The notes: a model not told the origin generated them from the sequence alone. DNA of 64,000 nt from Sulfitobacter sp. (GCA_047630275.1 JBLHVN010000002.1:135108-199107), one strand, 5' to 3'. Numbered from the stretch's first letter, positions 27,653-38,103 are shown. Program-made: numbers and translations.

Positions 27653-28663
27653 TTACATGCACTCGCGGGCGCGAGAGCCTTTCTTAAAGAGCTTCTTCTC
27701 AAAGAAGTCATAAGCTTTCTTACAGGCCTTAGCCCCTGGCCCTTTATTATTTAAAAGAATTGAAGGCTCTGTAACAAAGGCCGTTAAGACTTCAGCGAAG
27801 TGCTCATTTGATCTATTATCAGCGTAGCGAGAAACCAAGCAGGGAGCTTGTCCACCGCCACTGTCTTCTGTTCTAACCTTTCCGCCAATGGCGCTTAAAA
27901 AAGCGCTATAAACATTTCCGCCCCCACCTGGCATTGGTGAGTTACCAATTAAGTGCCCCCACTCATGAACATACTGGGCCACACTTAGGCCATGCTGGGC
28001 ATTACCTTTTCTTGAAATTCTAAATTTACTTCCAAACTGCTGACTACTCTTACTTTTATCGTCACACATTTCAAAAGGCATTGTTCTACTCGGTCTTCCG
28101 ATTTGAAAGACCCCACCATTAAGATACTGCATGGAAAGGATGGCCGCGCCTAAAGTTCTCATTTCAGTGCTCGAGGCATCTTTACTCTTACTATCAGAGG
28201 TCATCGAAAAGTTTTGAGAAGCAATGGCCTGCTTAGCTTTTTCTAGTGAGACATTCTCTATTGGGTAACATCCTCTTTCAGGACGAGGGTGATTCTTTAG
28301 CGAAATTCCATAACCAGGATCTTTTCCGCTAGGATTAACATTTCGTCTAAAGGGAGACTTTCCATTTGTACTAACAACCGGAACCGCTTTTGGAATGACT
28401 CCTGAAGGAGCGCAATCTCCCCCTGTTGGCAGATCTCCGGGGCTATTTACTATCCGAGTTACATCTTGAACTGCAGGAAGAGTTCTCCCGCCATTAGTTA
28501 AACTATCAAAAGCTCTTCGCCCCTCGGGAGTTGAATCCGCTGAAGCTGCCGCTGTTGATTGATAAACACTTTGAAAACCCTCTTGAGGAGTTTCACAAGA
28601 AGTGCTCAGGAGCACTAGCCCGCTAAGAATTAGGGTGTTTTTTATATTTCTCATTTTTTTCAT
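27653..28663 (-). CDS. Lipoprotein with an HExxH zinc-metalloprotease motif
   Basis: Lipobox LLSTSC. Contains YVHEWGHLIGNSP. Confidence 0.5.
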   Translation of the reverse strand: MKKMRNIKNTLILSGLVLLSTSCETPQEGFQSVYQSTAAASADSTPEGRRAFDSLTNGGRTLPAVQDVTRIVNSPGDLPTGGDCAPSGVIPKAVPVVSTNGKSPFRRNVNPSGKDPGYGISLKNHPRPERGCYPIENVSLEKAKQAIASQNFSMTSDSKSKDASSTEMRTLGAAILSMQYLNGGVFQIGRPSRTMPFEMCDDKSKSSQQFGSKFRISRKGNAQHGLSVAQYVHEWGHLIGNSPMPGGGGNVYSAFLSAIGGKVRTEDSGGGQAPCLVSRYADNRSNEHFAEVLTAFVTEPSILLNNKGPGAKACKKAYDFFEKKLFKKGSRARECM

Positions 28664-28679
28664 ATCTCACTCTAACATC

Positions 28680-28707
28680 TTGTCGGATTTAATCATGAAT
28701 ACCTTTA
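28680..28707 (-). promoter_or_regulatory. Sigma-28-like promoter (near consensus)
   Basis: The minus strand reads TAAA-N16-tCCGACAA. The -10 element ends 16 nt before the ATG at 28663. Confidence 0.45.
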
Positions 28708-29266
28708 ATAAGGTTACAAAGAAGAGTTATAACCAACTGAAAATACGGATAGGATCAAGGTTGAATGATAAAGAGGAAGAGCCCAGAATTGTGGGCAGAT
28801 TTATGACTTTAACTTTTCACTTTAAAACCGAAGATCTTTAGCTTTCTGTTTATCAAAAACAAAAGATCTAGTGATATATCTTCGAGTAGGTTATTTCTTA
28901 CTCGTTGCGGGATAATCAAAAATGACTCAGAACGCTGTACTTATTTACATGGTCCTTAATTTTTTCTCAAATTTCTAAACCACCTAAGATTCGAACAAGA
29001 ACATGGCTCAGTTCCAAAAGAAACTTCCTCAGAGAAATATGCGAAATCTTAATTTTTTATATAGTTGACTAAACAAGTTCAGTTAATTAGAAGTCCTCAA
29101 TTGAAAAATTATATATTTGCAATTTCAGGGCTTTATAACGCACATGTAAGTCTCTGTAAGTTTTTAGCAATATTACACACATGGCCGGAGCACCTGGCTA
29201 ATGAATTATTTTATAAACATGGTGAGCGCTCAATGTTCATCAAAACAAACTCATAGGAGAGTAAGA

Positions 29267-30370
29267 ATGAAGAAGACTTTATTTGCACTACTTGCCCTAG
29301 GTTTCGCTGGAACTGCATCTGCTGATGCAATCAACAGCTTTACTTGGGACACGTATTCATCTGACGACAAAATGTATGTATGTAATGTAGGTATCCGCCA
29401 TGAGCGTGGTACAGAAGGTCATGTTGACGAAAACGCTGGTGGAGCCAACTCAGGTGCCACAAGAACTTCTCACGATTACCTAACTGTAACTTACTCGACT
29501 CTTAACAATGACCAACAACGTGGACCAGAAGTAACGAGAGTTATCGAAGCTGGTGTTTCAAGTACTGCTTACACACAACTTGTAAGAGATGCTGATGCTC
29601 ATAAAATCGTTGTAACTTCACTTCAAGTTAATCTTGCTTCAGAAAACTACGGAGCTAAGTATTATGTAGATGTTTGTTACAGAGGAAATCAAATCGATTT
29701 CGCTGGTAACAATATCAGAACTGCTTTCAAACTTAAGCACAATCAACTTACTTATTCAGATCATGCTAACGCTGGTAACTTAAACTATTTCTCTGAAGCT
29801 CAACTTGCAGTTTCTTCGAAAACAGTTTGTGATACTCAAGCAGTTGGACGTAACCTAGGTTACGACAATGGTCTTAATTTTAACCAAGCAGATATGAATA
29901 TCGCTACTGCTGCTGGAGATATCAGATTTACAGCAGGAGAAAGAAGACTTACTTCTGGAACTCAAGCAATTCAATTTGTTTCTCCTTACCGTCCTGTTAC
30001 TTTAAACAGAAGTTCAACTGACGCTCCAAGATACTGTAAGACTCGTTACGAAGTTGCAGAGAAAAGAGTAAAAGTTGCTGCTACTCCTTCAAGAGCTGGT
30101 TACTGTCATGTAATGGCTTATAGCCGTAGATACGGTAGATACATAACTCAAAGTGTTCCAGGAAACTTCTCTTCAGCAGCACAATGTTATAATTATGCTC
30201 GTACAAATACTATGCGTTATGGTTATCCTTACTACTTCATTAACCATAGAGTAAGAGCCTTTCGTCCTACTATTCAAGGAACTGCTGCAGTTCTTCAGGA
30301 AAGAAACTGGACTCGTATGGGTGGTCGTTTTACTGCTCTAACTGAGATTGAAAATCACGGTTCAAACTAA
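29267..30370 (+). CDS. Secreted protein P1 of the orphan operon (paralog of P3)
   Basis: AGGAGA RBS. Signal peptide MKKTLFALLALGFAGTASA. It shares CNVGIRH, TSHDY(L/V)T.TYS, YYVD(V/F)C and (Y/F)C(K/R).R(Y/F).V.E blocks with the 32104..32862 product. Confidence 0.7.
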   Translation: MKKTLFALLALGFAGTASADAINSFTWDTYSSDDKMYVCNVGIRHERGTEGHVDENAGGANSGATRTSHDYLTVTYSTLNNDQQRGPEVTRVIEAGVSSTAYTQLVRDADAHKIVVTSLQVNLASENYGAKYYVDVCYRGNQIDFAGNNIRTAFKLKHNQLTYSDHANAGNLNYFSEAQLAVSSKTVCDTQAVGRNLGYDNGLNFNQADMNIATAAGDIRFTAGERRLTSGTQAIQFVSPYRPVTLNRSSTDAPRYCKTRYEVAEKRVKVAATPSRAGYCHVMAYSRRYGRYITQSVPGNFSSAAQCYNYARTNTMRYGYPYYFINHRVRAFRPTIQGTAAVLQERNWTRMGGRFTALTEIENHGSN

Positions 30371-30391
30371 GACAAAGTTTTAAAATAATTT

Positions 30392-30420
30392 GGGTGGGGC
30401 TTTTGCCCCATCCGCTTTTT
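30392..30420 (+). terminator. Intrinsic terminator/attenuator after P1
   Basis: 9-bp stem ggtggggc(t)/gccccatcc with one G-U pair and a tttt loop, followed by gcTTTTTT. Confidence 0.6.
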
Positions 30421-30437
30421 TATAAATGGGATAGAGA

Positions 30438-32111
30438 ATGAAAGATTTTATCATTATTAGTTTATTAATCTTTACAGGTTTTACTGGGATTTCAGAGGCC
30501 TGTGACTTTAATGGCGATTCAGTAAAAGCTTTTTCTACTTCATTTATAAAAGAGACAGGCAGTTTTTATAACCTCAAGACATCAAGAGAAGATCAGGCAA
30601 AGTTTGTTCTCGGTGGCTGCTCTAGATCAAAAAAGAAGTATTTTCAAATCTCTTTTGGCGTAAGCCACGACTATATTGATAACAGCACTTCTATTTCCGC
30701 CCTCTATGATAACTTCGTTCCTAGTGCCTGTTCTTTAAGACCGATGCCTTTTAAGTCTCAAATGAGTAGAAAAGAAGAGAAAAATGCCTTCTTAGAGAAG
30801 CTAAGTTTCTTAAAGAAGTGCTTTGATATTTATGTAACTTCACTAGCAGGACAGCCTCTTATCTTTCCAGAAAATCAAAAAGGCTGTAAGCCTGAACTAA
30901 TTAAGCCTTCAAAAGTTAAACTAAATGGAAACCTTTGCTTCTTTGATATTATCCAGGGCGATGGTTTTCTTGTTGAACTTAAATACAAGGACTCATGCAA
31001 AAAAAGAGAGTTCTTTGTAGAAAATAAAATTTCAACTCAAGACTTTGTCTCACACCTCGGGTTCAACGTAGTTAATACAGCCGATGGAACAGGTGAAGGA
31101 ATTATAACTGTAGGTTCTTCAATCATTAGAATGTCCATTGATCCTGAAGCAAGAAATATGAGAGTCTCAGATGATTTTGGAAGAGCTACTCCTCTTTTTC
31201 CAGCGGTTTGGTCTGTCCCAGACGTTCATTTTGGAAAGCCAACTTTAGAGGCCAATGGAAAACAAAGAATTCTTAACCTGCCTTTTGTTGCAGATAACCG
31301 TTGTAAAAAAACTTGTATTGATGGTATTTGTTCAAGCCCATGCCACTACGCCTCTCCCGTTGCTGCTGAAGTTGAGCTCTTCGAGCTTTCTAGCAGTGGA
31401 GATATCTTTGAAGAGGATGACTTCTTTGGAGATGACGACGGATTCAAAAGCCTACTAAAAGGACTTAAAAAGAAGCCTGCTTTTATAAAGTCGTTTTATA
31501 ATGGCGGTATTGTTCAGGCCAATTGGCAAGGGCAAATAAGTGGCAATCGTATCCAACTTGGAGAAGAGATTAAAGCTGGGAGAAGATACCGAGTAAAAGC
31601 CTCTTTTAGAGATCCAAAACTTGATTATCATTTTCTAATGAAAAACTATAAATCTCTTCTAGGAAGTATTCCTTCACTAAGAGATGCACAAGGTGGAGTT
31701 ATCCAAGGTATCTCAGGCGCGAGCGAAGATGTTCTTTCAAGTATCAGCTCGATGATTAGTAATTTAGGAACAGTTCAAGATGATGGCTCAGGAATAAGTC
31801 CTTTGAGAAGAGCTATCTTAAAGTTTCAAAGTCTTTTCAGTTATCATGCATGGCCTGTTTATGTTGATAAGGTATGTGACTCAAGTTTATTAGCCTGTAA
31901 AAAACCGACTAAGAAAGATAACCTTGTTCTTACTATGGACTTTACGGCCGGAAGCGAGAGAGAGTTTGGAGAAATAGCCCTAAAGAATATTAAAATCACA
32001 AGAACATCACCAGTATTGAAAAACTACTCGAAGAGTTTCGCACTTGAAGAGCTTCCTATTATAGCCTGTTTTGACGAAGAAAATATTCAAGAAGGAGAAT
32101 CAAATGAGTAA
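30438..32111 (+). CDS. Secreted protein P2 (557 aa), no recognisable family
   Basis: Signal peptide MKDFIIISLLIFTGFTGISEA. Multiple Cys residues and an acidic FEEDDFFGDDDGF patch. Confidence 0.65.
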   Translation: MKDFIIISLLIFTGFTGISEACDFNGDSVKAFSTSFIKETGSFYNLKTSREDQAKFVLGGCSRSKKKYFQISFGVSHDYIDNSTSISALYDNFVPSACSLRPMPFKSQMSRKEEKNAFLEKLSFLKKCFDIYVTSLAGQPLIFPENQKGCKPELIKPSKVKLNGNLCFFDIIQGDGFLVELKYKDSCKKREFFVENKISTQDFVSHLGFNVVNTADGTGEGIITVGSSIIRMSIDPEARNMRVSDDFGRATPLFPAVWSVPDVHFGKPTLEANGKQRILNLPFVADNRCKKTCIDGICSSPCHYASPVAAEVELFELSSSGDIFEEDDFFGDDDGFKSLLKGLKKKPAFIKSFYNGGIVQANWQGQISGNRIQLGEEIKAGRRYRVKASFRDPKLDYHFLMKNYKSLLGSIPSLRDAQGGVIQGISGASEDVLSSISSMISNLGTVQDDGSGISPLRRAILKFQSLFSYHAWPVYVDKVCDSSLLACKKPTKKDNLVLTMDFTAGSEREFGEIALKNIKITRTSPVLKNYSKSFALEELPIIACFDEENIQEGESNE

Positions 32112-32862
32112 GCTTCTTGCTCTATTCCTATTGATTTTTAGCTTTAGCGTCTTTGCAGGAAACGAGAAGGTAGACGTTTGTCATATACCTCCTGGAAATC
32201 CTGATAATGCTCACACCATTAACGTCAGTGAAAATGCTGTTTCAGCTCACTTGGCTCATGGTGATTATTTAGGTGCCTGCGCCCCAACAAGTAGTGCAGC
32301 AAAATTTTATCCATGTAACGTCGGTATCCGTCATAGAAATACTTTTAATGGTACGGCCACTTCCCATGATTATGTAACTTACACTTATAGTAATATTGAT
32401 GGAACTGGGGCATCTGATCTTGTTCTTGAAGCAAAAAGAAATAGCTATGATTTTGCTTTTAGTCAGATCACGGCCTTTAGTAAAAAGCTTGAAGAAGTAA
32501 AGATCAACTTATCTTCAGAAAGAATGGGAACCGATTATTATGTCGATTTTTGTTTTGATGGAAGAGCAAATAATGGTTCAAAAGGGCTTAGGATAGAAGA
32601 CGTTACTCATATCTCTAGTAATCCTTTTCCCATTACAGTCTCAAGAGAATTATATTGCGATATTCATAATCGAGAGAATGGGCGCCCAGACTTATCAAGA
32701 ATCTCTCTTTCTGGCGGCTTCCCTATTAGCTTTAATAAAGTTCCAGAATTTTGCAGACTACGTTTTCATGTTATCGAAACAAATATCGGAGAGGCCAGGA
32801 ACTGGTCTCGAAGTTTTAATAGAATAAGTACATTTATCGAATCTGAGATTTTTTCTCAATAA
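32104..32862 (+). CDS. Secreted protein P3 (paralog of P1) with an N-terminal CHxPPGNP motif
   Basis: AAGGAG RBS. The ATG at 32104 overlaps the P2 stop by 8 nt. Signal peptide MSKLLALFLLIFSFSVFA, then VDVCHIPPGNPDNAHTINVSENAVSAHLAHGDYLGAC. Confidence 0.7.
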   Translation: MSKLLALFLLIFSFSVFAGNEKVDVCHIPPGNPDNAHTINVSENAVSAHLAHGDYLGACAPTSSAAKFYPCNVGIRHRNTFNGTATSHDYVTYTYSNIDGTGASDLVLEAKRNSYDFAFSQITAFSKKLEEVKINLSSERMGTDYYVDFCFDGRANNGSKGLRIEDVTHISSNPFPITVSRELYCDIHNRENGRPDLSRISLSGGFPISFNKVPEFCRLRFHVIETNIGEARNWSRSFNRISTFIESEIFSQ

Positions 32863-32886
32863 ACACGCGGCTAAGGAGTCGAAATT

Positions 32887-33468
32887 ATGAAAAACCTATT
32901 TATATTATTAAGCGTTCTACTGATGATTTCAGCAAATGCTTATGCAGACGGAACTGGAGACAATGACAATGGTGGCGGAGACGTTATCGACGACATGTTT
33001 GGTGGCGGAACTGATGAATTTGAATTCGAAAGATTTTCAGATGATCGTATTCTAGTAGCAATTGACGAAGATGCTGCTGTTAACTGTGATAAGCAAGGTC
33101 TTTGTACTCTTTCTGCTATTACAACTAACTCTAGAACTTTTTCTGTAAATTTCAATATCGGTCAAGGCAACAATGCTTCTGGTGGATTTGGTGGTTACGG
33201 TGAAGGTAACGGCGGAACTACAATTAATATCGGCGACGACAATCAGGATGAAAACCGTGAGCATTGGGGAGTAAACGTTCAATACAAGATTGGTAGTTGT
33301 ACTCAAAAAGTTAAGGTTCCAAGAGCTCTTTTTTACTCAATGAACAGATACCTCTACGGTCTAATGACTGAAGAAGGGTCAGTAAGACGTGGTTTTACAC
33401 CTGCTGACGAAGCAATGATCCTTTTTTACACGACTATCTTAAATAAAGCTTCAGGATGTGGTAACTAG
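32887..33468 (+). CDS. Secreted Gly/Asp-rich protein P4
   Basis: AAGGAG RBS. Signal peptide MKNLFILLSVLLMISANAYA, with GTGDNDNGGGD and GGFGGYGEGNGG tracts. Confidence 0.65.
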   Translation: MKNLFILLSVLLMISANAYADGTGDNDNGGGDVIDDMFGGGTDEFEFERFSDDRILVAIDEDAAVNCDKQGLCTLSAITTNSRTFSVNFNIGQGNNASGGFGGYGEGNGGTTINIGDDNQDENREHWGVNVQYKIGSCTQKVKVPRALFYSMNRYLYGLMTEEGSVRRGFTPADEAMILFYTTILNKASGCGN

Positions 33469-33495
33469 TAACTTCTTGAAATTAAAAAGGTTTAA

Positions 33496-36267
33496 ATGAA
33501 GCAAATTCAATTTTTCATAATTATTATATTGGGCCTGTTACTCTCCGGAGTAGCAGGTTCTTCTGAAACCCAATGGAAGAAAGGTGAACACTTTTCTAAG
33601 GTTGTCGGTTTAAATAATATGAGATTCACCAATAGAGCTCGTTGTGCTCTTGACTCCAAAAAGCCCACTCAGTCGGCTTTTGTCATGGTGACTAATATTG
33701 ATGCTGCTAGATCACTTTATCGCTTAGCTAAAGCTACAAACCAAGATTCAAGTACAGTTGTTAAAAAAGGAATCCGCAGATTTAGATATTCTGTTGTTCA
33801 GCTTTTAGAGCTTATCCATAGAAGACTAATGAACAGAGAACTTCCACTTCTCTCTTCAAATTCAACTGAGAATCATGTTCCAAGAAAGTATAAGAAGCTC
33901 ATGGAATCATGCCGCTCAGATGAGTATTGTGATGAACTAGACCAATACATCCAAAAGATTTGGAAGATTAGCTCTAATGATTCTCTAAACAATATTGAAA
34001 AAGTTCTTAAGTACTATGATGTTGATAATTACCATTCAAAAGAATCTTTCTTAGACCCTAAGGATTTTGAAGATAAGAAAGTAAACACTAAGCTATCTTG
34101 TCACTACTTAAAGAAGTTCAGCCCACTTCAAGCCCACCTCTACGGAACAAAGCCTAACAAAAAAGCTATGACTCAGATTGCAGAAGCTGCTTATAAGTCT
34201 GATGAGATGCTAGCGCGCTGTGATGATTTTGATTCTCAAGAAAACTTAAAGGTTGCTGGATATCAAATTGAATTCACAGGACTTAAAGATAAGAAATGGA
34301 ATGAGCAAGGATTCGATTATTGGAATTCACTTAAATTATATTTTTCATGGGCCTGGAGAAACGCCCCCGAAATGGAACAGATAGCTTTTCCATTTGGTGA
34401 AGTATTCCCCGCTATCGCCATTGAAGAAGCTGTCATGCTTGTTCCAAATGGTTGTAAGTCAATTACCGTGCCAGAATGTGACGGCGATTATCTTGCTTTA
34501 AATGCTATGCGCGAGTTTGCCAAAAAAGACATGCGTAAGAAGAAGATAACTCTCGATGTTTTATCTGAACTCCCTGAAGGGCCACAGCAAGACCTTCTCG
34601 ATGACACTTTTACTGATGTTAATAACGATATCTTAGACCTAGTGAAGCAACCTGATGCTTCAGCATGGATCAACAATTTTCAAACAAACCTCTCTGGAAC
34701 AAGAAGCTTAATGAAGAATAAGCTTATAAAGGCCGTAACTTTCTTAGATATTGCAAAGGCTAACTTAAATAAGAAAAAATTAATTAAGAAATTGAATCAA
34801 CAATTTTCTATTTTCAAAACTGCTGAAGGCCGTAGTTCAGTAGAGAACACTGATCTTAAGAATGAATTGTTCTACCTTTGCGCAGAATTTAATTTCTCAC
34901 ATCATAAAGATTTCAGTTTTTTAAGAGGAAACTTAGATATCTTATCTAAGACAACCCTAATAGATGGAATCACCAAAGGTCTTTCCAAGAATTCAACTAA
35001 AGCTTATTTTGAATATTATACAGAAATAGCCGAAGCGATAACTACACAATGTTCAAGCTTAGAGCAACGTGAAATTTGGAATGATGAATTTGAACTAGAA
35101 AAACAAGGCTACTCTTCTTGGTATATTGAAAAGATTTACGAAGATAAGTATAAATCGACATTAGAAATTAAAGCTAAAGAATACCTAGCAATAGCTAAAC
35201 CAGAATTGGCCTACGGACAGTATAGTGAGTCAAAAGATTTTAACGACGTTCTTTGCGCCAGCCCTGCTCACTGCGCTCGTAAAGTGTTGGGATCAATTGT
35301 AGATCTCTTTTCAACTAGTCAGTACGCAAATACTTTCTACTCACTTGATCAGGCCTTAAAATCTCCTGCTCTTTTTAATCCTTACGCAGAAAGAACATCA
35401 TGTAAGATCTATGACCCTTGGTACAAATCACGGGCCATCATCTTCAACCTATTTGCAGATCTTGGGCAAGCAGCCTTAAGTCTTACAACTCCTGGTGCTA
35501 TTTATTCTTCATTTAACTTAAAGCCTGGAAGAGTAGTCTCTTTTAGACAGCTAGTAGAAGAAGGAAAGATTGAATACGATACTCGTATGGATAGCGGAGG
35601 AGTTCAAGCAAGCTTAGTCGCTGACTTTGGACCACTTTTAGGTGTTCCTTGTGCCATTAGTTATATGCCTACCTCTAATCCTTATAATACTTATCGATTC
35701 GCGGGAATCTCAGCTGCCGCTTGTACTTCAAGCTCAGATAATGACTTAGTTGTGAGAAATGCTTCAGACTATGATGATAATCAAACAACAAACCGCTCTG
35801 GATGTGCAAGTTGCGCTCTTAACTTTGAATCTGTAGCTACTTCAGCAACGAGGTTAGCCCCTACAGTAGGAACAACCTTCTTCTTAGTAAAAGCTATCAT
35901 TCGATTATATAAAGGCTTAAAAGATCCCTTTAATATTCCAAGGTCATGGGAAGCCAATCCTAATTATGTTTTAGATTCATACAAAAAATTTGGTGAGATC
36001 CCTAAGAAGTGCGTAAGAAGCCTAAGAAAAGGCAAGATGTGTTTACGTAATGACTGCGAAGAAAATGTACTTAAAGCGCTATATGACAAGGCCGATGTTT
36101 CTGTGAAAAGTTTTAGACAAGATAACGGAAATGCTTATCTAAAAGTTCATAACTGTGAAGAAGAGATCGTCGTTGATGTAACGAATTCACCTTTTGGTGA
36201 TTCTTGTAGAGTTAAAAAGATAGTCATCCCTGAGAGCTGCAAGCACTTAATTAAAGGTAAAAAATGA
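33496..36267 (+). CDS. Large secreted protein P5 (923 aa), no recognisable family
   Basis: Has a signal peptide. It is a long uninterrupted ORF with many paired Cys residues. Confidence 0.7.
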   Translation: MKQIQFFIIIILGLLLSGVAGSSETQWKKGEHFSKVVGLNNMRFTNRARCALDSKKPTQSAFVMVTNIDAARSLYRLAKATNQDSSTVVKKGIRRFRYSVVQLLELIHRRLMNRELPLLSSNSTENHVPRKYKKLMESCRSDEYCDELDQYIQKIWKISSNDSLNNIEKVLKYYDVDNYHSKESFLDPKDFEDKKVNTKLSCHYLKKFSPLQAHLYGTKPNKKAMTQIAEAAYKSDEMLARCDDFDSQENLKVAGYQIEFTGLKDKKWNEQGFDYWNSLKLYFSWAWRNAPEMEQIAFPFGEVFPAIAIEEAVMLVPNGCKSITVPECDGDYLALNAMREFAKKDMRKKKITLDVLSELPEGPQQDLLDDTFTDVNNDILDLVKQPDASAWINNFQTNLSGTRSLMKNKLIKAVTFLDIAKANLNKKKLIKKLNQQFSIFKTAEGRSSVENTDLKNELFYLCAEFNFSHHKDFSFLRGNLDILSKTTLIDGITKGLSKNSTKAYFEYYTEIAEAITTQCSSLEQREIWNDEFELEKQGYSSWYIEKIYEDKYKSTLEIKAKEYLAIAKPELAYGQYSESKDFNDVLCASPAHCARKVLGSIVDLFSTSQYANTFYSLDQALKSPALFNPYAERTSCKIYDPWYKSRAIIFNLFADLGQAALSLTTPGAIYSSFNLKPGRVVSFRQLVEEGKIEYDTRMDSGGVQASLVADFGPLLGVPCAISYMPTSNPYNTYRFAGISAAACTSSSDNDLVVRNASDYDDNQTTNRSGCASCALNFESVATSATRLAPTVGTTFFLVKAIIRLYKGLKDPFNIPRSWEANPNYVLDSYKKFGEIPKKCVRSLRKGKMCLRNDCEENVLKALYDKADVSVKSFRQDNGNAYLKVHNCEEEIVVDVTNSPFGDSCRVKKIVIPESCKHLIKGKK

Positions 36268-36824
36268 TAAAGTTAACAATAGGTCTATTCTTATTGATCT
36301 CAGCCAATTCAGCCTTCGCTATTTCATATGAGTCTATATGGACAGAGGACTATAAAAAAAATGTTATCATGACTTGCTCTGAAGATGAATTTCAATGCGA
36401 GGACCTCTGCGGAAAGTCCTCTTGTGTAATTAAAGAAAAAGTTTGCCGAAATTGTATCGGATCAAATATCCGTATTACACATATTTTTAGAGACATGGGC
36501 AGATCATTTACTAATACAGGTAATGAAGTTTCCTACTACGAGGTTCTTGAAATTTTAGGAAGCGGACACTTTGCTACGTTCACGTCAAAATCAATTTACA
36601 ATATTGTCGAAAGGTATGACTCCGCAAAGTTAAGGAAAAAGTTTCAGTCCCTTTGTCCTAACGAGATCAACTATCCAATAGTCATTTTTTCTACGAAAAA
36701 AGTCTCTCGGATCTTAGATGAAGTGAAGTTTGTTCTTTGTGGAGAAAAAGTTTTTGAAATGAGCAGTGATGCCATCATTGATTCGAATGATAAAGCCTCT
36801 TTTGAGTCTAATAAATTATATTAA
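36264..36824 (+). CDS. Secreted Cys-rich protein P6
   Basis: ATGA overlap with the P5 stop. Signal peptide MIKLTIGLFLLISANSAFA, with CSEDEFQCEDLCGKSSCVIKEKVCRNC. Confidence 0.65.
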   Translation: MIKLTIGLFLLISANSAFAISYESIWTEDYKKNVIMTCSEDEFQCEDLCGKSSCVIKEKVCRNCIGSNIRITHIFRDMGRSFTNTGNEVSYYEVLEILGSGHFATFTSKSIYNIVERYDSAKLRKKFQSLCPNEINYPIVIFSTKKVSRILDEVKFVLCGEKVFEMSSDAIIDSNDKASFESNKLY

Positions 36825-36836
36825 TTGGAGAATTAT

Positions 36837-37424
36837 ATGAAAATAACTATGATCACAGCCCTTGCCTTATTATTTGTAACTAGTGCTTTTGCAGCAACTG
36901 GCCAGCTTGAAAAACAGCTTTCTGAAACAGTTACCGAAACTTATGTTCTTAAAAATGGAATCTATGAAAGAATAGCTCTAAAAAGAATAGGGAAAGAAAA
37001 ACTTATTTTCATTATTAACGGAGAGGAGCTTCCTGAAGTTCTTATCGAGTTTACAGGTAATGAAGAATTAATGGAAGAGAAGTATTTGATTCCACTAGAA
37101 GGCCAAGTTGAATTTAAACTTCACCAAGATGGCACAGATGATTTTCCTGATTATGATGAAAAATATTCATTTCCTGCAAAAATAAAGCTTAATGGTAACA
37201 AAATCCAAAGCCTACTCACTAGCGAAAGTGCTTTAACAGGTCACTTTAAGCCTCTCTTTGAAGAAATGATTAAGTTTGAGTTAGGTTCTGGGGAAATTTT
37301 GCCGGAAGATGTAGTGATCGAAATGATTAAAGTTAAGGCATCCCCTCTTAAGTGCCTTCCAAAAAACGAAAAGCTTTACTGCCAATATAAATTGAAAGTT
37401 CATGCTAAAGCATTTGCAGAATAA
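36837..37424 (+). CDS. Secreted protein P7
   Basis: GGAG RBS before the ATG at 36837. Signal peptide MKITMITALALLFVTSAFA. Confidence 0.6.
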   Translation: MKITMITALALLFVTSAFAATGQLEKQLSETVTETYVLKNGIYERIALKRIGKEKLIFIINGEELPEVLIEFTGNEELMEEKYLIPLEGQVEFKLHQDGTDDFPDYDEKYSFPAKIKLNGNKIQSLLTSESALTGHFKPLFEEMIKFELGSGEILPEDVVIEMIKVKASPLKCLPKNEKLYCQYKLKVHAKAFAE

Positions 37425-37456
37425 TAAACGACAAAACGACATTTGTTATAAGAAAG

Positions 37457-37487
37457 AGGCCTTGTTGAATAACAAGGCCTTTTTTTT
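37457..37487 (+). terminator. Intrinsic terminator of the P1-P7 operon
   Basis: Perfect 10-bp stem aggccttgtt/aacaaggcct with a gaat loop, followed by T7. Confidence 0.85.
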
Positions 37488-37515: not shown

Positions 37516-38103
37516 TTATGAAAAGTCACAAAACTCTGAGCGCCTAAGGCCATTAACAAGTAACTTTCTCTCAATATCAGGAACGGTTTCGTTCAACCAT
37601 TTTAATCCCCATTCATCTTTAAACCCATAATGATCACAGATTGGAATGGAGAACTCTTCACATTGAGTTATATTTTTCAAGGTACTATAAGGATACTCTT
37701 CGCATTTTTGTACAATTCCTGCTCTAACAGGGTTTTGATAAACATAGCGGTAACAGTTGATAAAATAGTTGTTCACTGAAATTAAGCACCACTTATACCG
37801 TCCACCGAATATTTGATTGATGATCTTGCCGCGTTTTTGAATCTTGAGGGTTAACCTTCTATTGAACTCGCGCATGAATAGGTCGAGGTTAGAGTCCGGC
37901 GTTTTGATAATCATATGGTAGTGATTTCCCATTAAGACGTAGCTCACTAGGTTTATGGGAATCATCTTATGCGCTTCTTTAAAAGAATCTAATGATAGCT
38001 CCCAAACTTCATCTAAAGGTATTTGAAACCAATCTTGATTATGGCAGCGGCTCGTTACATGGTAGGGAAATTCAGAGGTTCTTACTAAGTTTTTTCTAGG
38101 CAT
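37516..38103 (-). CDS. REP-associated tyrosine transposase (IS200-like Y1/HUH transposase)
   Basis: HUH motif in VLMGNHYHMIIKTP. The catalytic-Tyr helix YRYVYQNPVRAGIV..EYPYST closely parallels the RAYT/TnpA-REP YI..NPVRAG.V..EY.WSS. Confidence 0.85.
   Translation of the reverse strand: MPRKNLVRTSEFPYHVTSRCHNQDWFQIPLDEVWELSLDSFKEAHKMIPINLVSYVLMGNHYHMIIKTPDSNLDLFMREFNRRLTLKIQKRGKIINQIFGGRYKWCLISVNNYFINCYRYVYQNPVRAGIVQKCEEYPYSTLKNITQCEEFSIPICDHYGFKDEWGLKWLNETVPDIERKLLVNGLRRSEFCDFS

Follow-up and report, generated by a model that had tools for sequence, protein, structure and literature searches.

Seven consecutive genes that encode nothing but exported proteins of no recognisable family raise the question of whether they form one functional unit and, if so, what that unit does. 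The genes, here called P1 to P7, lie on the plus strand of a 64,000-nt stretch of DNA (GCA_047630275.1 JBLHVN010000002.1:135108-199107; hereafter the window), and a first-pass annotation had described them as a single operon for a novel extracytoplasmic apparatus. All seven products are exact matches to 'hypothetical proteins' of a metagenome-assembled Bacteriovoracaceae genome, the source of the window. Based on sequence comparison, we describe the block as carrying an ancient, Bdellovibrionota-specific gene set with P1, P2, P4, P5 and P6 as its core, the products of which are predicted to be Sec-exported and disulfide-stabilised. The cluster lies outside known kinds, as no family or system fits it. 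We infer that the products act together outside the cytoplasm, and any 'apparatus' is a putative one.

The distribution of the cluster was surveyed with a P5 profile against one genome per species, and all open reading frames (ORFs) at the resulting 57 loci were classified with the family profiles. The loci came from Halobacteriovorax, Bacteriovorax, Bdellovibrio bacteriovorus, Pseudobdellovibrionaceae and unclassified Bdellovibrionota. Among the 27 P5 loci flanked by at least 7 kb in either direction, 26 were syntenic and contained P1, P2, P4, P5 and P6 together, in both major Bdellovibrionota lineages; the lone exception was an additional P5 paralog standing alone, whose genome has the complete cluster as well. 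A stand-alone P5 paralog of 922 aa lies away from the cluster in B. bacteriovorus strain kdesi (at ~1.10 Mb), flanked by an alpha/beta hydrolase and serine proteases, with no partner family nearby. Flanking genes vary between lineages around the conserved five-family core, and gene order is circularly permuted, being 1-2-(3)-4-5-6 in Bacteriovoracaceae and 4-5-6-1-2-1' in Bdellovibrio; in some Bacteriovorax genomes the cluster is split as 5-6 ... 1-2-4. The earlier view that the genes belong together holds for these five families but not for the other two: P7 was found outside the window only in L005, a 77%-identical relative, and P3-type paralogs were gained and lost among genomes, with five extra P1 paralogs in one of them. 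P5 has 89 homologs, down to 28% identity and including Halobacteriovorax marinus SJ, and it is the most conserved and slowest-evolving member; identity between the window and H. marinus is 54% for P5, 49% for P4, 39% for P6, 30% for P1 and 26% for P2. As judged from these comparisons, the cluster is essentially single-copy and conserved across the phylum.

No conserved ATPase, regulator or membrane protein stands beside the cluster across the surveyed loci, which agrees with the first-pass remark that the block encodes neither these nor a cytoplasmic protein, and besides the P8 family no conserved neighbour is common to both lineages. P8 is an exported protein of ~400 aa, absent from the window; at 15 loci, drawn from both lineages, its gene adjoins that of a P3-type paralog. 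The protein carries the motifs 'TDCAD ... RPGD..H' and gives a weak SpvD-like (papain-like) match; P8 could be a maturation protease.

An alternative without any functional unit, in which unrelated secreted proteins follow one another by chance, would fit the absence of conservation of P7 and the abundance of signal-peptide-like N-termini in the window, which a crude heuristic flagged in ~33 of 59 ORFs of at least 120 aa, several with a lipobox-like Cys. Because so many ORFs were flagged, seven signal peptides in a row are not improbable by themselves. Such a fraction is to be expected, as the exported proteome of a predator of this kind is very large, and the density of exported proteins is unusually high throughout the window region. 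The case against chance is therefore made by synteny and not by the run of signal peptides: the five families stay together in all but one of the 27 loci despite differing flanks and rearranged order, and both the start-stop overlaps of P5 and P6 and the position of a hairpin after P1 are conserved (see below). Given this synteny, chance co-location is excluded for practical purposes, and we regard it as extremely improbable.

Searches of Pfam, NCBIfam, PHROGs and PADLOC with the seven window proteins revealed nothing significant, as had been described at first. Pfam searches with 145 family members (P1, P2, P4, P6) gave scattered sub-threshold matches only, e.g., Crisp in four P2 homologs (best E 0.003), and PDB sequence-profile searches found no match for any of the five core families. 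No member thus fell into an unrelated, well-known family by sequence or PDB profile. Cys, Gly, Pro and aromatic residues make up most of the conserved columns in each family, and no catalytic-type motif stands out among them.

The P1 family is fast-evolving and carries the motif Y-x-C-N-[AV]-G-I. P3 is its paralog (BLASTP 3e-13; hhalign 100%, E 2e-38, ~290 columns), and the two differ at the N-terminus. In 43 of the 45 P1 genes located directly upstream of P2, the mature chain opens with an alternating hydrophobic strand of the 'ISLRFKFKVFSSGP' type, with the consensus A/ISLRFKFKVFSSGPxIYACNAGI (slash, cleavage site), of which the window P1 has a degenerate version, DAINSFTWDTYSS. P3 lacks this strand and has a Cys/His module (CHIPPGNP...HLAHGDYLGAC) instead, confirming the CHxPPGNP module that had been noticed there; this module has no Pfam match. 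Related modules head the P3-type paralogs of other Bacteriovoracaceae. Of the P1 paralogs at other positions in the clusters, the Cys/His module is present in 12, and both it and the strand are lacking in 10. The strand of P1 and the module of P3 can be likened to donor-strand pilins and to tip subunits with another N-terminal domain, as a resemblance only.

For P2, an exhaustive HMMER search of 1.84 billion representative proteins was needed, as a word-index search with an alignment as the query returned the same six matches as the single sequence. It yielded 169 representatives, the longest of 623 aa among the matches listed; since no relative is much longer than the core of ~520 aa, no fusion of P2 is evident. 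The AlphaFold2 model of P2 (96 homologs; pLDDT 89.2, pTM 0.88) is a chain of immunoglobulin (Ig)-like beta-sandwiches with a helical insert. Its top Foldseek match was the Enterococcus WxL-interacting protein WxLIP (9i25_C; probability 0.99, E 3e-4, template-modelling (TM) score 0.22/0.39, 8% identity), and the others were adhesin stalk repeats, Gram-positive shaft pilins, chaperone-usher chaperones and fimbrial subunits. On the predicted model, these matches are of a generic tandem-Ig kind. A Cys-rich insert in P2 has a sub-threshold likeness to the CRISP cysteine-rich domain (E 2.1 against a CRISP chain in PDB) and is probably just a disulfide knot. P2 was also considered as a lipoprotein and as a CsgG-like channel, and both were rejected: its conserved Cys stands in an AFA/C (AxA/C) signal-peptidase-I context and not in a typical lipobox, and the model is a soluble Ig-like array. 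In some P2 homologs the conserved Cys is located several residues past the cleavage site.

P5 was modelled from 59 homologs as a mostly alpha-helical protein (mean pLDDT 82, pTM 0.77) with a poorly defined segment at residues 665-790 and a small C-terminal beta domain. Foldseek with this model gave nothing better than E 0.6 in PDB or E 0.7 in BFVD, a database of predicted viral structures, and P5 would accordingly represent a novel all-alpha fold, as far as the model is right. The structure searches called for by the first-pass annotation thus left P5 with no structural neighbour and P2 with its generic match. Some P5 homologs (P0042, P0055, P0074 and P0044) bear a C-terminal extension of 200-340 aa, made up of a highly charged helical repeat (ERLERARLE.. 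or AARVEAAKAE..) and, after it, an additional domain of ~110 aa with two Cys; the extension has the look of a spacer that keeps a binding module at a distance. The long P5 homologs (1038-1270 aa) were examined as possible fusions with P4 or P6, and this was rejected, as charged helical repeats and an extra small domain were found instead. P4 has an acidic and Gly-rich N-terminal half and a highly conserved C-terminal half.

Within the window, our ORF list agrees with the seven plus-strand genes and the lengths first given for them (Table 1). Each N-terminus consists of a basic n-region, a hydrophobic core and an AxA-like cleavage site, in keeping with the Sec signal peptides proposed earlier; no internal transmembrane-like segment was found in any product, and the counts of mature Cys are even in all seven, which supports the suggested pairing of cysteines. 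From P1/P2 to P6/P7 the junctions measure 67, -8, 24, 27, -4 (ATGA) and 12 nt. Both overlaps had been reported, and the gaps of '12-27 nt elsewhere' were right for three junctions but not for P1/P2. NCBI places the start of P1 at ATG 29201 (389 aa), whereas an AGGAG site and the signal peptide favour ATG 29267. Ribosome-binding sites are of the AGGAG type and strong in P1 (AGGAG), P3 and P4 (AAGGAG), and weak in P2, P5 and P6. The AT-rich region of ~600 nt upstream of P1 was likewise as described. Its proximal ~200 nt (about 29067-29266) are conserved with L005 and the distal 400 nt are not, which suggests that the region is probably a promoter followed by a long conserved leader. An Rfam scan of the region gave nothing at E<0.1 and only sub-threshold noise, and a sigma-28-type motif was looked for and not found.

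Table 1. Coordinates of the gene block, its neighbours and related loci. Positions are those of the window unless a locus (L number) is given; export is predicted from the signal peptides, and old annotations of B. bacteriovorus HD100 genes, in brackets, are from PMC3627812.
Feature	Coordinates	Strand	Description	HD100 counterpart
P1	29267-30370	+	367 aa, exported, 6 Cys	Bd0751 ortholog (putative protease)
Hairpin 3' of P1	30391-30424	+	Intrinsic-terminator-like, GGGUGGGGC-UUUU-GCCCCAUCC, then T6	
P2	30438-32111	+	557 aa, exported, 14 Cys; tandem Ig-like beta-sandwich array with helical insert	Bd0750 ortholog (hypothetical)
P2 Cys-rich insert	31302-31346	+	CKKTCIDGICSSPC (residues 289-303)	
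P3	32104-32862	+	252 aa, 6 Cys; P1 paralog, presence variable among genomes	Bdellovibrio counterpart Bd0749, a P1-like paralog (pilus assembly protein)
P3 N-terminal Cys/His-rich module	32179-32280	+	CHIPPGNPDNAHTINVSENAVSAHLAHGDYLGAC, read from sequence	
P4	32887-33468	+	193 aa, exported, 4 Cys	Bd0754 ortholog (putative protease)
P5	33496-36267	+	923 aa, exported, 22 Cys; mostly alpha-helical, without known fold	Bd0753 ortholog (hypothetical)
P6	36264-36824	+	186 aa, exported, 8 Cys; six-Cys cluster at N-terminus	Bd0752 ortholog (putative cation-transporting ATPase)
P7	36837-37424	+	195 aa, exported, 2 Cys; lineage-specific add-on outside the conserved set	
Upstream intergenic region	28664-29266	+	603 nt, 33% GC (window, 39.8%)	
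Terminal intrinsic terminator	37457-37487	+	10-bp stem, T8; bidirectional with convergent IS200-like gene	
IS200-like Y1 transposase	37516-38103	-	Resembles REP-associated tyrosine transposase (Pfam Y1_Tnp, E 7.9e-5)	
Lipoprotein-like ORF	27653-28663	-	Divergent; signal peptide ending LSTSC, HEWGH zinc-protease-type motif, no Pfam match	
P8, example loci	L040 17200-18417; L048 9395-10627; plus 13 other loci		Exported; absent from window	Bd0748 (hypothetical)
Stand-alone P5 paralog of strain kdesi	L039 9905-12673			
P4/P5 hairpin, example	L002 9860-9985		Terminator-like	

The IS200-like gene is convergent with P7, and the terminator hairpin is common to both. On the other side, the divergent lipoprotein-like ORF also adjoins the cluster in L001, a contig of another sample with the same locus; it is outside the conserved set.

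The first-pass annotation had one strong terminator closing one seven-gene transcription unit. The terminal hairpin is real and strong (dG -25.7 kcal/mol, z -6.5), but a second terminator-like hairpin is located 3' of P1, in the P1/P2 gap, where a 10-bp GC-rich stem is followed by T6 (dG about -20; centroid -19.7 kcal/mol). In other genomes, a hairpin with a minimum free energy of -13 or lower was present at 28 of 31 P1/P2 junctions with a gap of at least 38 nt (median shuffle z -5), often with a T-run; the position of these hairpins is conserved and their sequences are unrelated. In the Bdellovibrio gene order the P1/P2 gap is mostly short (4-46 nt at B. bacteriovorus-type loci) and free of a hairpin; two genomes with this order, L051 and L053, do have long gaps with hairpins. 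Terminator-like hairpins were also found between P4 and P5 in 13 of 17 gaps of at least 38 nt in other genomes (e.g., L002, L021, L024, L047 and L044). The hairpin after P1 means that the block is not a simple operon closed by one terminator, and with P7 lineage-specific and P3 a duplicate of P1, the single co-transcribed operon of seven genes appears, on this evidence, not to be upheld. At the P5/P6 junction, overlaps of -4 in 18 of 49 loci and of -1 in 5 of 49 point to translational coupling of the two genes. Taken together, the hairpins, the strength of the ribosome-binding sites and the P5/P6 coupling suggest that P1, P4 (and P3) would be abundant products and P2, P5 and P6 scarce ones.

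These signals of unequal expression, the structural nature of the conserved residues, the lack of an energy source, the contrast of fast-evolving P1 and P2 with slow P4 and P5 and the presence of subunit variants among the paralogs are better accounted for by a self-assembling structure than by an enzyme pathway. The explanation that we tentatively favour, at somewhat below an even chance, is an energy-independent structural assembly outside the cytoplasm, in the periplasm or at the cell surface. The products would assemble there with no ATPase or inner-membrane partner; P1 and probably also P4 would be abundant building blocks, and the P3-type paralogs variant subunits in which the Cys/His module replaces the alternating-hydrophobic N-terminal strand of P1. 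P2, the Ig-like array always encoded just 3' of P1, may serve as a scaffold, adaptor or chaperone for P1, and P5-P6 would form a slowly evolving low-copy core or anchor. Such a structure would probably be made outside the standard laboratory predation cycle. In its most specific version, which we consider quite unlikely, this would be a new type of ATP-independent fibre or coat peculiar to Bdellovibrionota, with a P1 polymer joined through its N-terminal strand, a P3-type cap or tip, P2 as chaperone or adaptor and a base of P4, P5 and P6 founded on the novel all-alpha fold, used in a life-cycle state that standard predation experiments do not sample, for instance dormancy, growth on surfaces or in biofilms, or life on particular prey.

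Published data on B. bacteriovorus HD100 bear directly on this proposal. HD100 orthologs were assigned from the neighbouring genes in B. bacteriovorus and from Table S1 of Karunker et al. 2013 (PMC3627812). Bd0749-Bd0754 are located at 710-717 kb in HD100, and the neighbours of the cluster in B. bacteriovorus are an extracytoplasmic function (ECF) sigma factor, the FHA-GGDEF protein DgcB, PGI and an aminopeptidase. The old annotations of the HD100 genes (Table 1) are unsupported by any of our searches. A comparison of transcripts in attack and growth phases, proposed at first as a check, turned out unfavourably, with the orthologs near-silent in both: Bd0748-Bd0755 are all flagged as 'silent' in attack phase and at 3 h, and among these the highest values at 3 h are those of Bd0751 and Bd0754, with 37 and 28 reads per kilobase per million mapped reads (RPKM), when growth genes in the same table reach hundreds to thousands (PMC3627812). 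The hairpins after P4 in other genomes agree with Bd0754 (P4) and Bd0751 (P1) being the best expressed. In the arrays of Lambert et al. 2010, bdelloplast entry left all the orthologs unchanged, with non-significant fold changes of 1.0-1.3; during host-independent (prey-free) growth only Bd0751 and Bd0754 rose, 2- to 5-fold, and Bd0750 and Bd0752 fell ~2- to 3-fold (PMC2797640). The validated predation pool of 141 mutants from the transposon-sequencing (Tn-seq) screen of Duncan et al. 2019 includes the neighbour Bd0742 and none of Bd0749-Bd0754 (PMC6561027). Our literature search found no main-text mention of Bd0747-Bd0755, while nearby Bd0745 is mentioned. In the parts covered, the published data do not tie the HD100 cluster to prey invasion, and nothing in them points to the adhesion, invasion or toxin complex suggested by the first-pass annotation; an invasion or adhesion apparatus of the standard predatory cycle is disfavoured by near-silent orthologs that are unchanged on entry and stand outside that pool. 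Near-silence under the usual conditions indicates that the role may fall outside the canonical attack-and-growth cycle.

Several observations weigh against a structural assembly. The HD100 orthologs reach RPKM values of only 0-0.9 in attack phase and 0-37 at 3 h (GP3) (PMC3627812), and among the entries listed for a 2025 predation proteome are Bd0741, Bd0742 and Bd0755 and none of Bd0749-Bd0754 (PMC12546842); with orthologs almost unexpressed and missing from those entries, the assembly itself has never been seen. No outer-membrane channel or anchor is recognisable among the products, which show no beta-barrel signature, and the mature Cys of P2, following an AxA site, offers no typical lipobox. 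The window has no hairpin 3' of P4, where the gap is 27 nt. The strand at the P1 N-terminus may be no more than the opening strand of the P1 fold itself, and interaction, localisation and polymerisation of the products are properties that we infer.

Two other explanations were weighed on the same data. The products may be secreted effectors or toxins directed at prey, with P5 as a large helical toxin for the prey envelope, P4 and P6 as accessory proteins or chaperones and P1-P3 as fast-evolving prey-binding components. A predatory host, the export and disulfide-richness of all products, the fast evolution of P1 and P2 and the expansions of P1 paralogs, as expected of target-binding proteins, and the long charged helical spacers with an extra terminal domain in some P5 variants would all suit this. 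However, effectors would not be expected to stay uninduced on bdelloplast entry (PMC2797640), near-silent in attack phase and at 3 h (PMC3627812) and absent from a validated mutant pool in which Bd0742 is present (PMC6561027). No likeness to a hydrolase, pore-former or toxin was found by sequence or fold, including any toxin-complex or pore-forming toxin likeness of the large subunit P5 by PDB profile or Foldseek (PDB, BFVD), and the putative toxin would be the slowest-evolving member; we consider the effector set unlikely.

The products may instead form a housekeeping complex in the periplasm, and not a surface structure, that serves an envelope feature found only in these bacteria, for example the flagellar sheath or the architecture of the outer membrane or peptidoglycan. 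Such a complex would account for phylum-wide conservation in an essentially single copy, for constrained residues that are structural and for the absence of any secretion or anchoring signal besides the Sec signal peptide. Good expression during growth would be expected of it, yet the GP3 values of 0-37 RPKM compare with hundreds to thousands for growth genes (PMC3627812), and the cluster is absent among the proteome entries listed, where the flanking Bd0741, Bd0742 and Bd0755 are present (PMC12546842). Fast evolution of P1 and P2 and paralog turnover fit exposure better than a housekeeping role, to which we also give a low likelihood.

Several known systems were compared with the cluster. Chaperone-usher pili (Pap, Fim, Caf1) share Sec-exported components, the lack of an ATPase, a hairpin 3' of the gene for the abundant subunit and minor paralogous subunits with the cluster, as well as an Ig-like protein encoded beside the subunit and a variant subunit that, like tip adhesins, has another N-terminal domain instead of the N-terminal strand. 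However, the cluster has no usher-sized beta-barrel: there is no usher match in Pfam or NCBIfam, and P5, the one large protein, has a mostly alpha-helical model. P2 has about four Ig-like domains, no PapD-family Pfam match was found in 36 P2 homologs, and the structural matches to PapD, Caf1M and CfaA are weak (probability 0.18-0.75, TM 0.19-0.31) and generically Ig. Further differences are that P4, P5 and P6 have no counterpart in these pili and that the subunits here are ~300-370 aa long with conserved disulfides. Curli (CsgA-G) and Fap resemble the cluster in being encoded by signal-peptide-only clusters, in ATP-free assembly outside the cytoplasm and in having a major subunit with a paralogous variant (CsgA/CsgB), but no CsgG, CsgA/CsgB or Fap-type match was obtained (window proteins in Pfam and NCBIfam; 145 members of P1, P2, P4 and P6), imperfect amyloid repeats are absent, and a helical protein of 900 aa is central here. 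WxL/Csc loci of Enterococcus and Lactobacillus likewise encode several exported proteins of unknown family that assemble at the cell surface, and WxLIP is the best match of P2; the hosts are Gram-positive, the match is weak, there is no WxL/DUF916-type Pfam match and no other component is common. Type V pili (FimA/Mfa of Bacteroidota) are built from lipoprotein subunits, unlike P1, P3 and P4, which have AxA signal-peptidase-I sites and lack a lipobox; as for their proteolytic maturation, the papain-like candidate protease P8/Bd0748 is found in 15 other loci and not in the window.

The hit locus of Bdellovibrio (Bd0108/Bd0109) is a small Sec-exported cluster of the same organisms, connected to a surface structure and lifestyle switching (PMC3818213), but it is located at ~97 kb in HD100, some 600 kb from the cluster, and shows no sequence relationship to it. 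A link was nevertheless considered, as one P5 homolog of strain kdesi is found near 104 kb, close to the position of Bd0108 in HD100. It was rejected, since Bd0109 is itself a 65-kDa RHS-family protein, followed by Tad/Flp genes, and the orthologs Bd0749-Bd0754 have no Tad flanks.

Bdellovibrio-like predators are studied as 'living antibiotics', and cryo-tomography has revealed envelope and surface structures in them whose components have no assigned genes. Bd0750-Bd0754 and their relatives make up five orphan exported families that are passed on together throughout the phylum and constitute a small, concrete set of targets, each with an ortholog in B. bacteriovorus, for which published genetic tools are available. 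Even if no structure is built, P5, with ~900 residues and a confident model without a neighbour in the solved or the predicted viral structures, would still be a new fold, and P1 and P2 a new pair of fast-evolving exported proteins. If the set does build a structure, it would represent a new kind of energy-independent assembly outside the cytoplasm.

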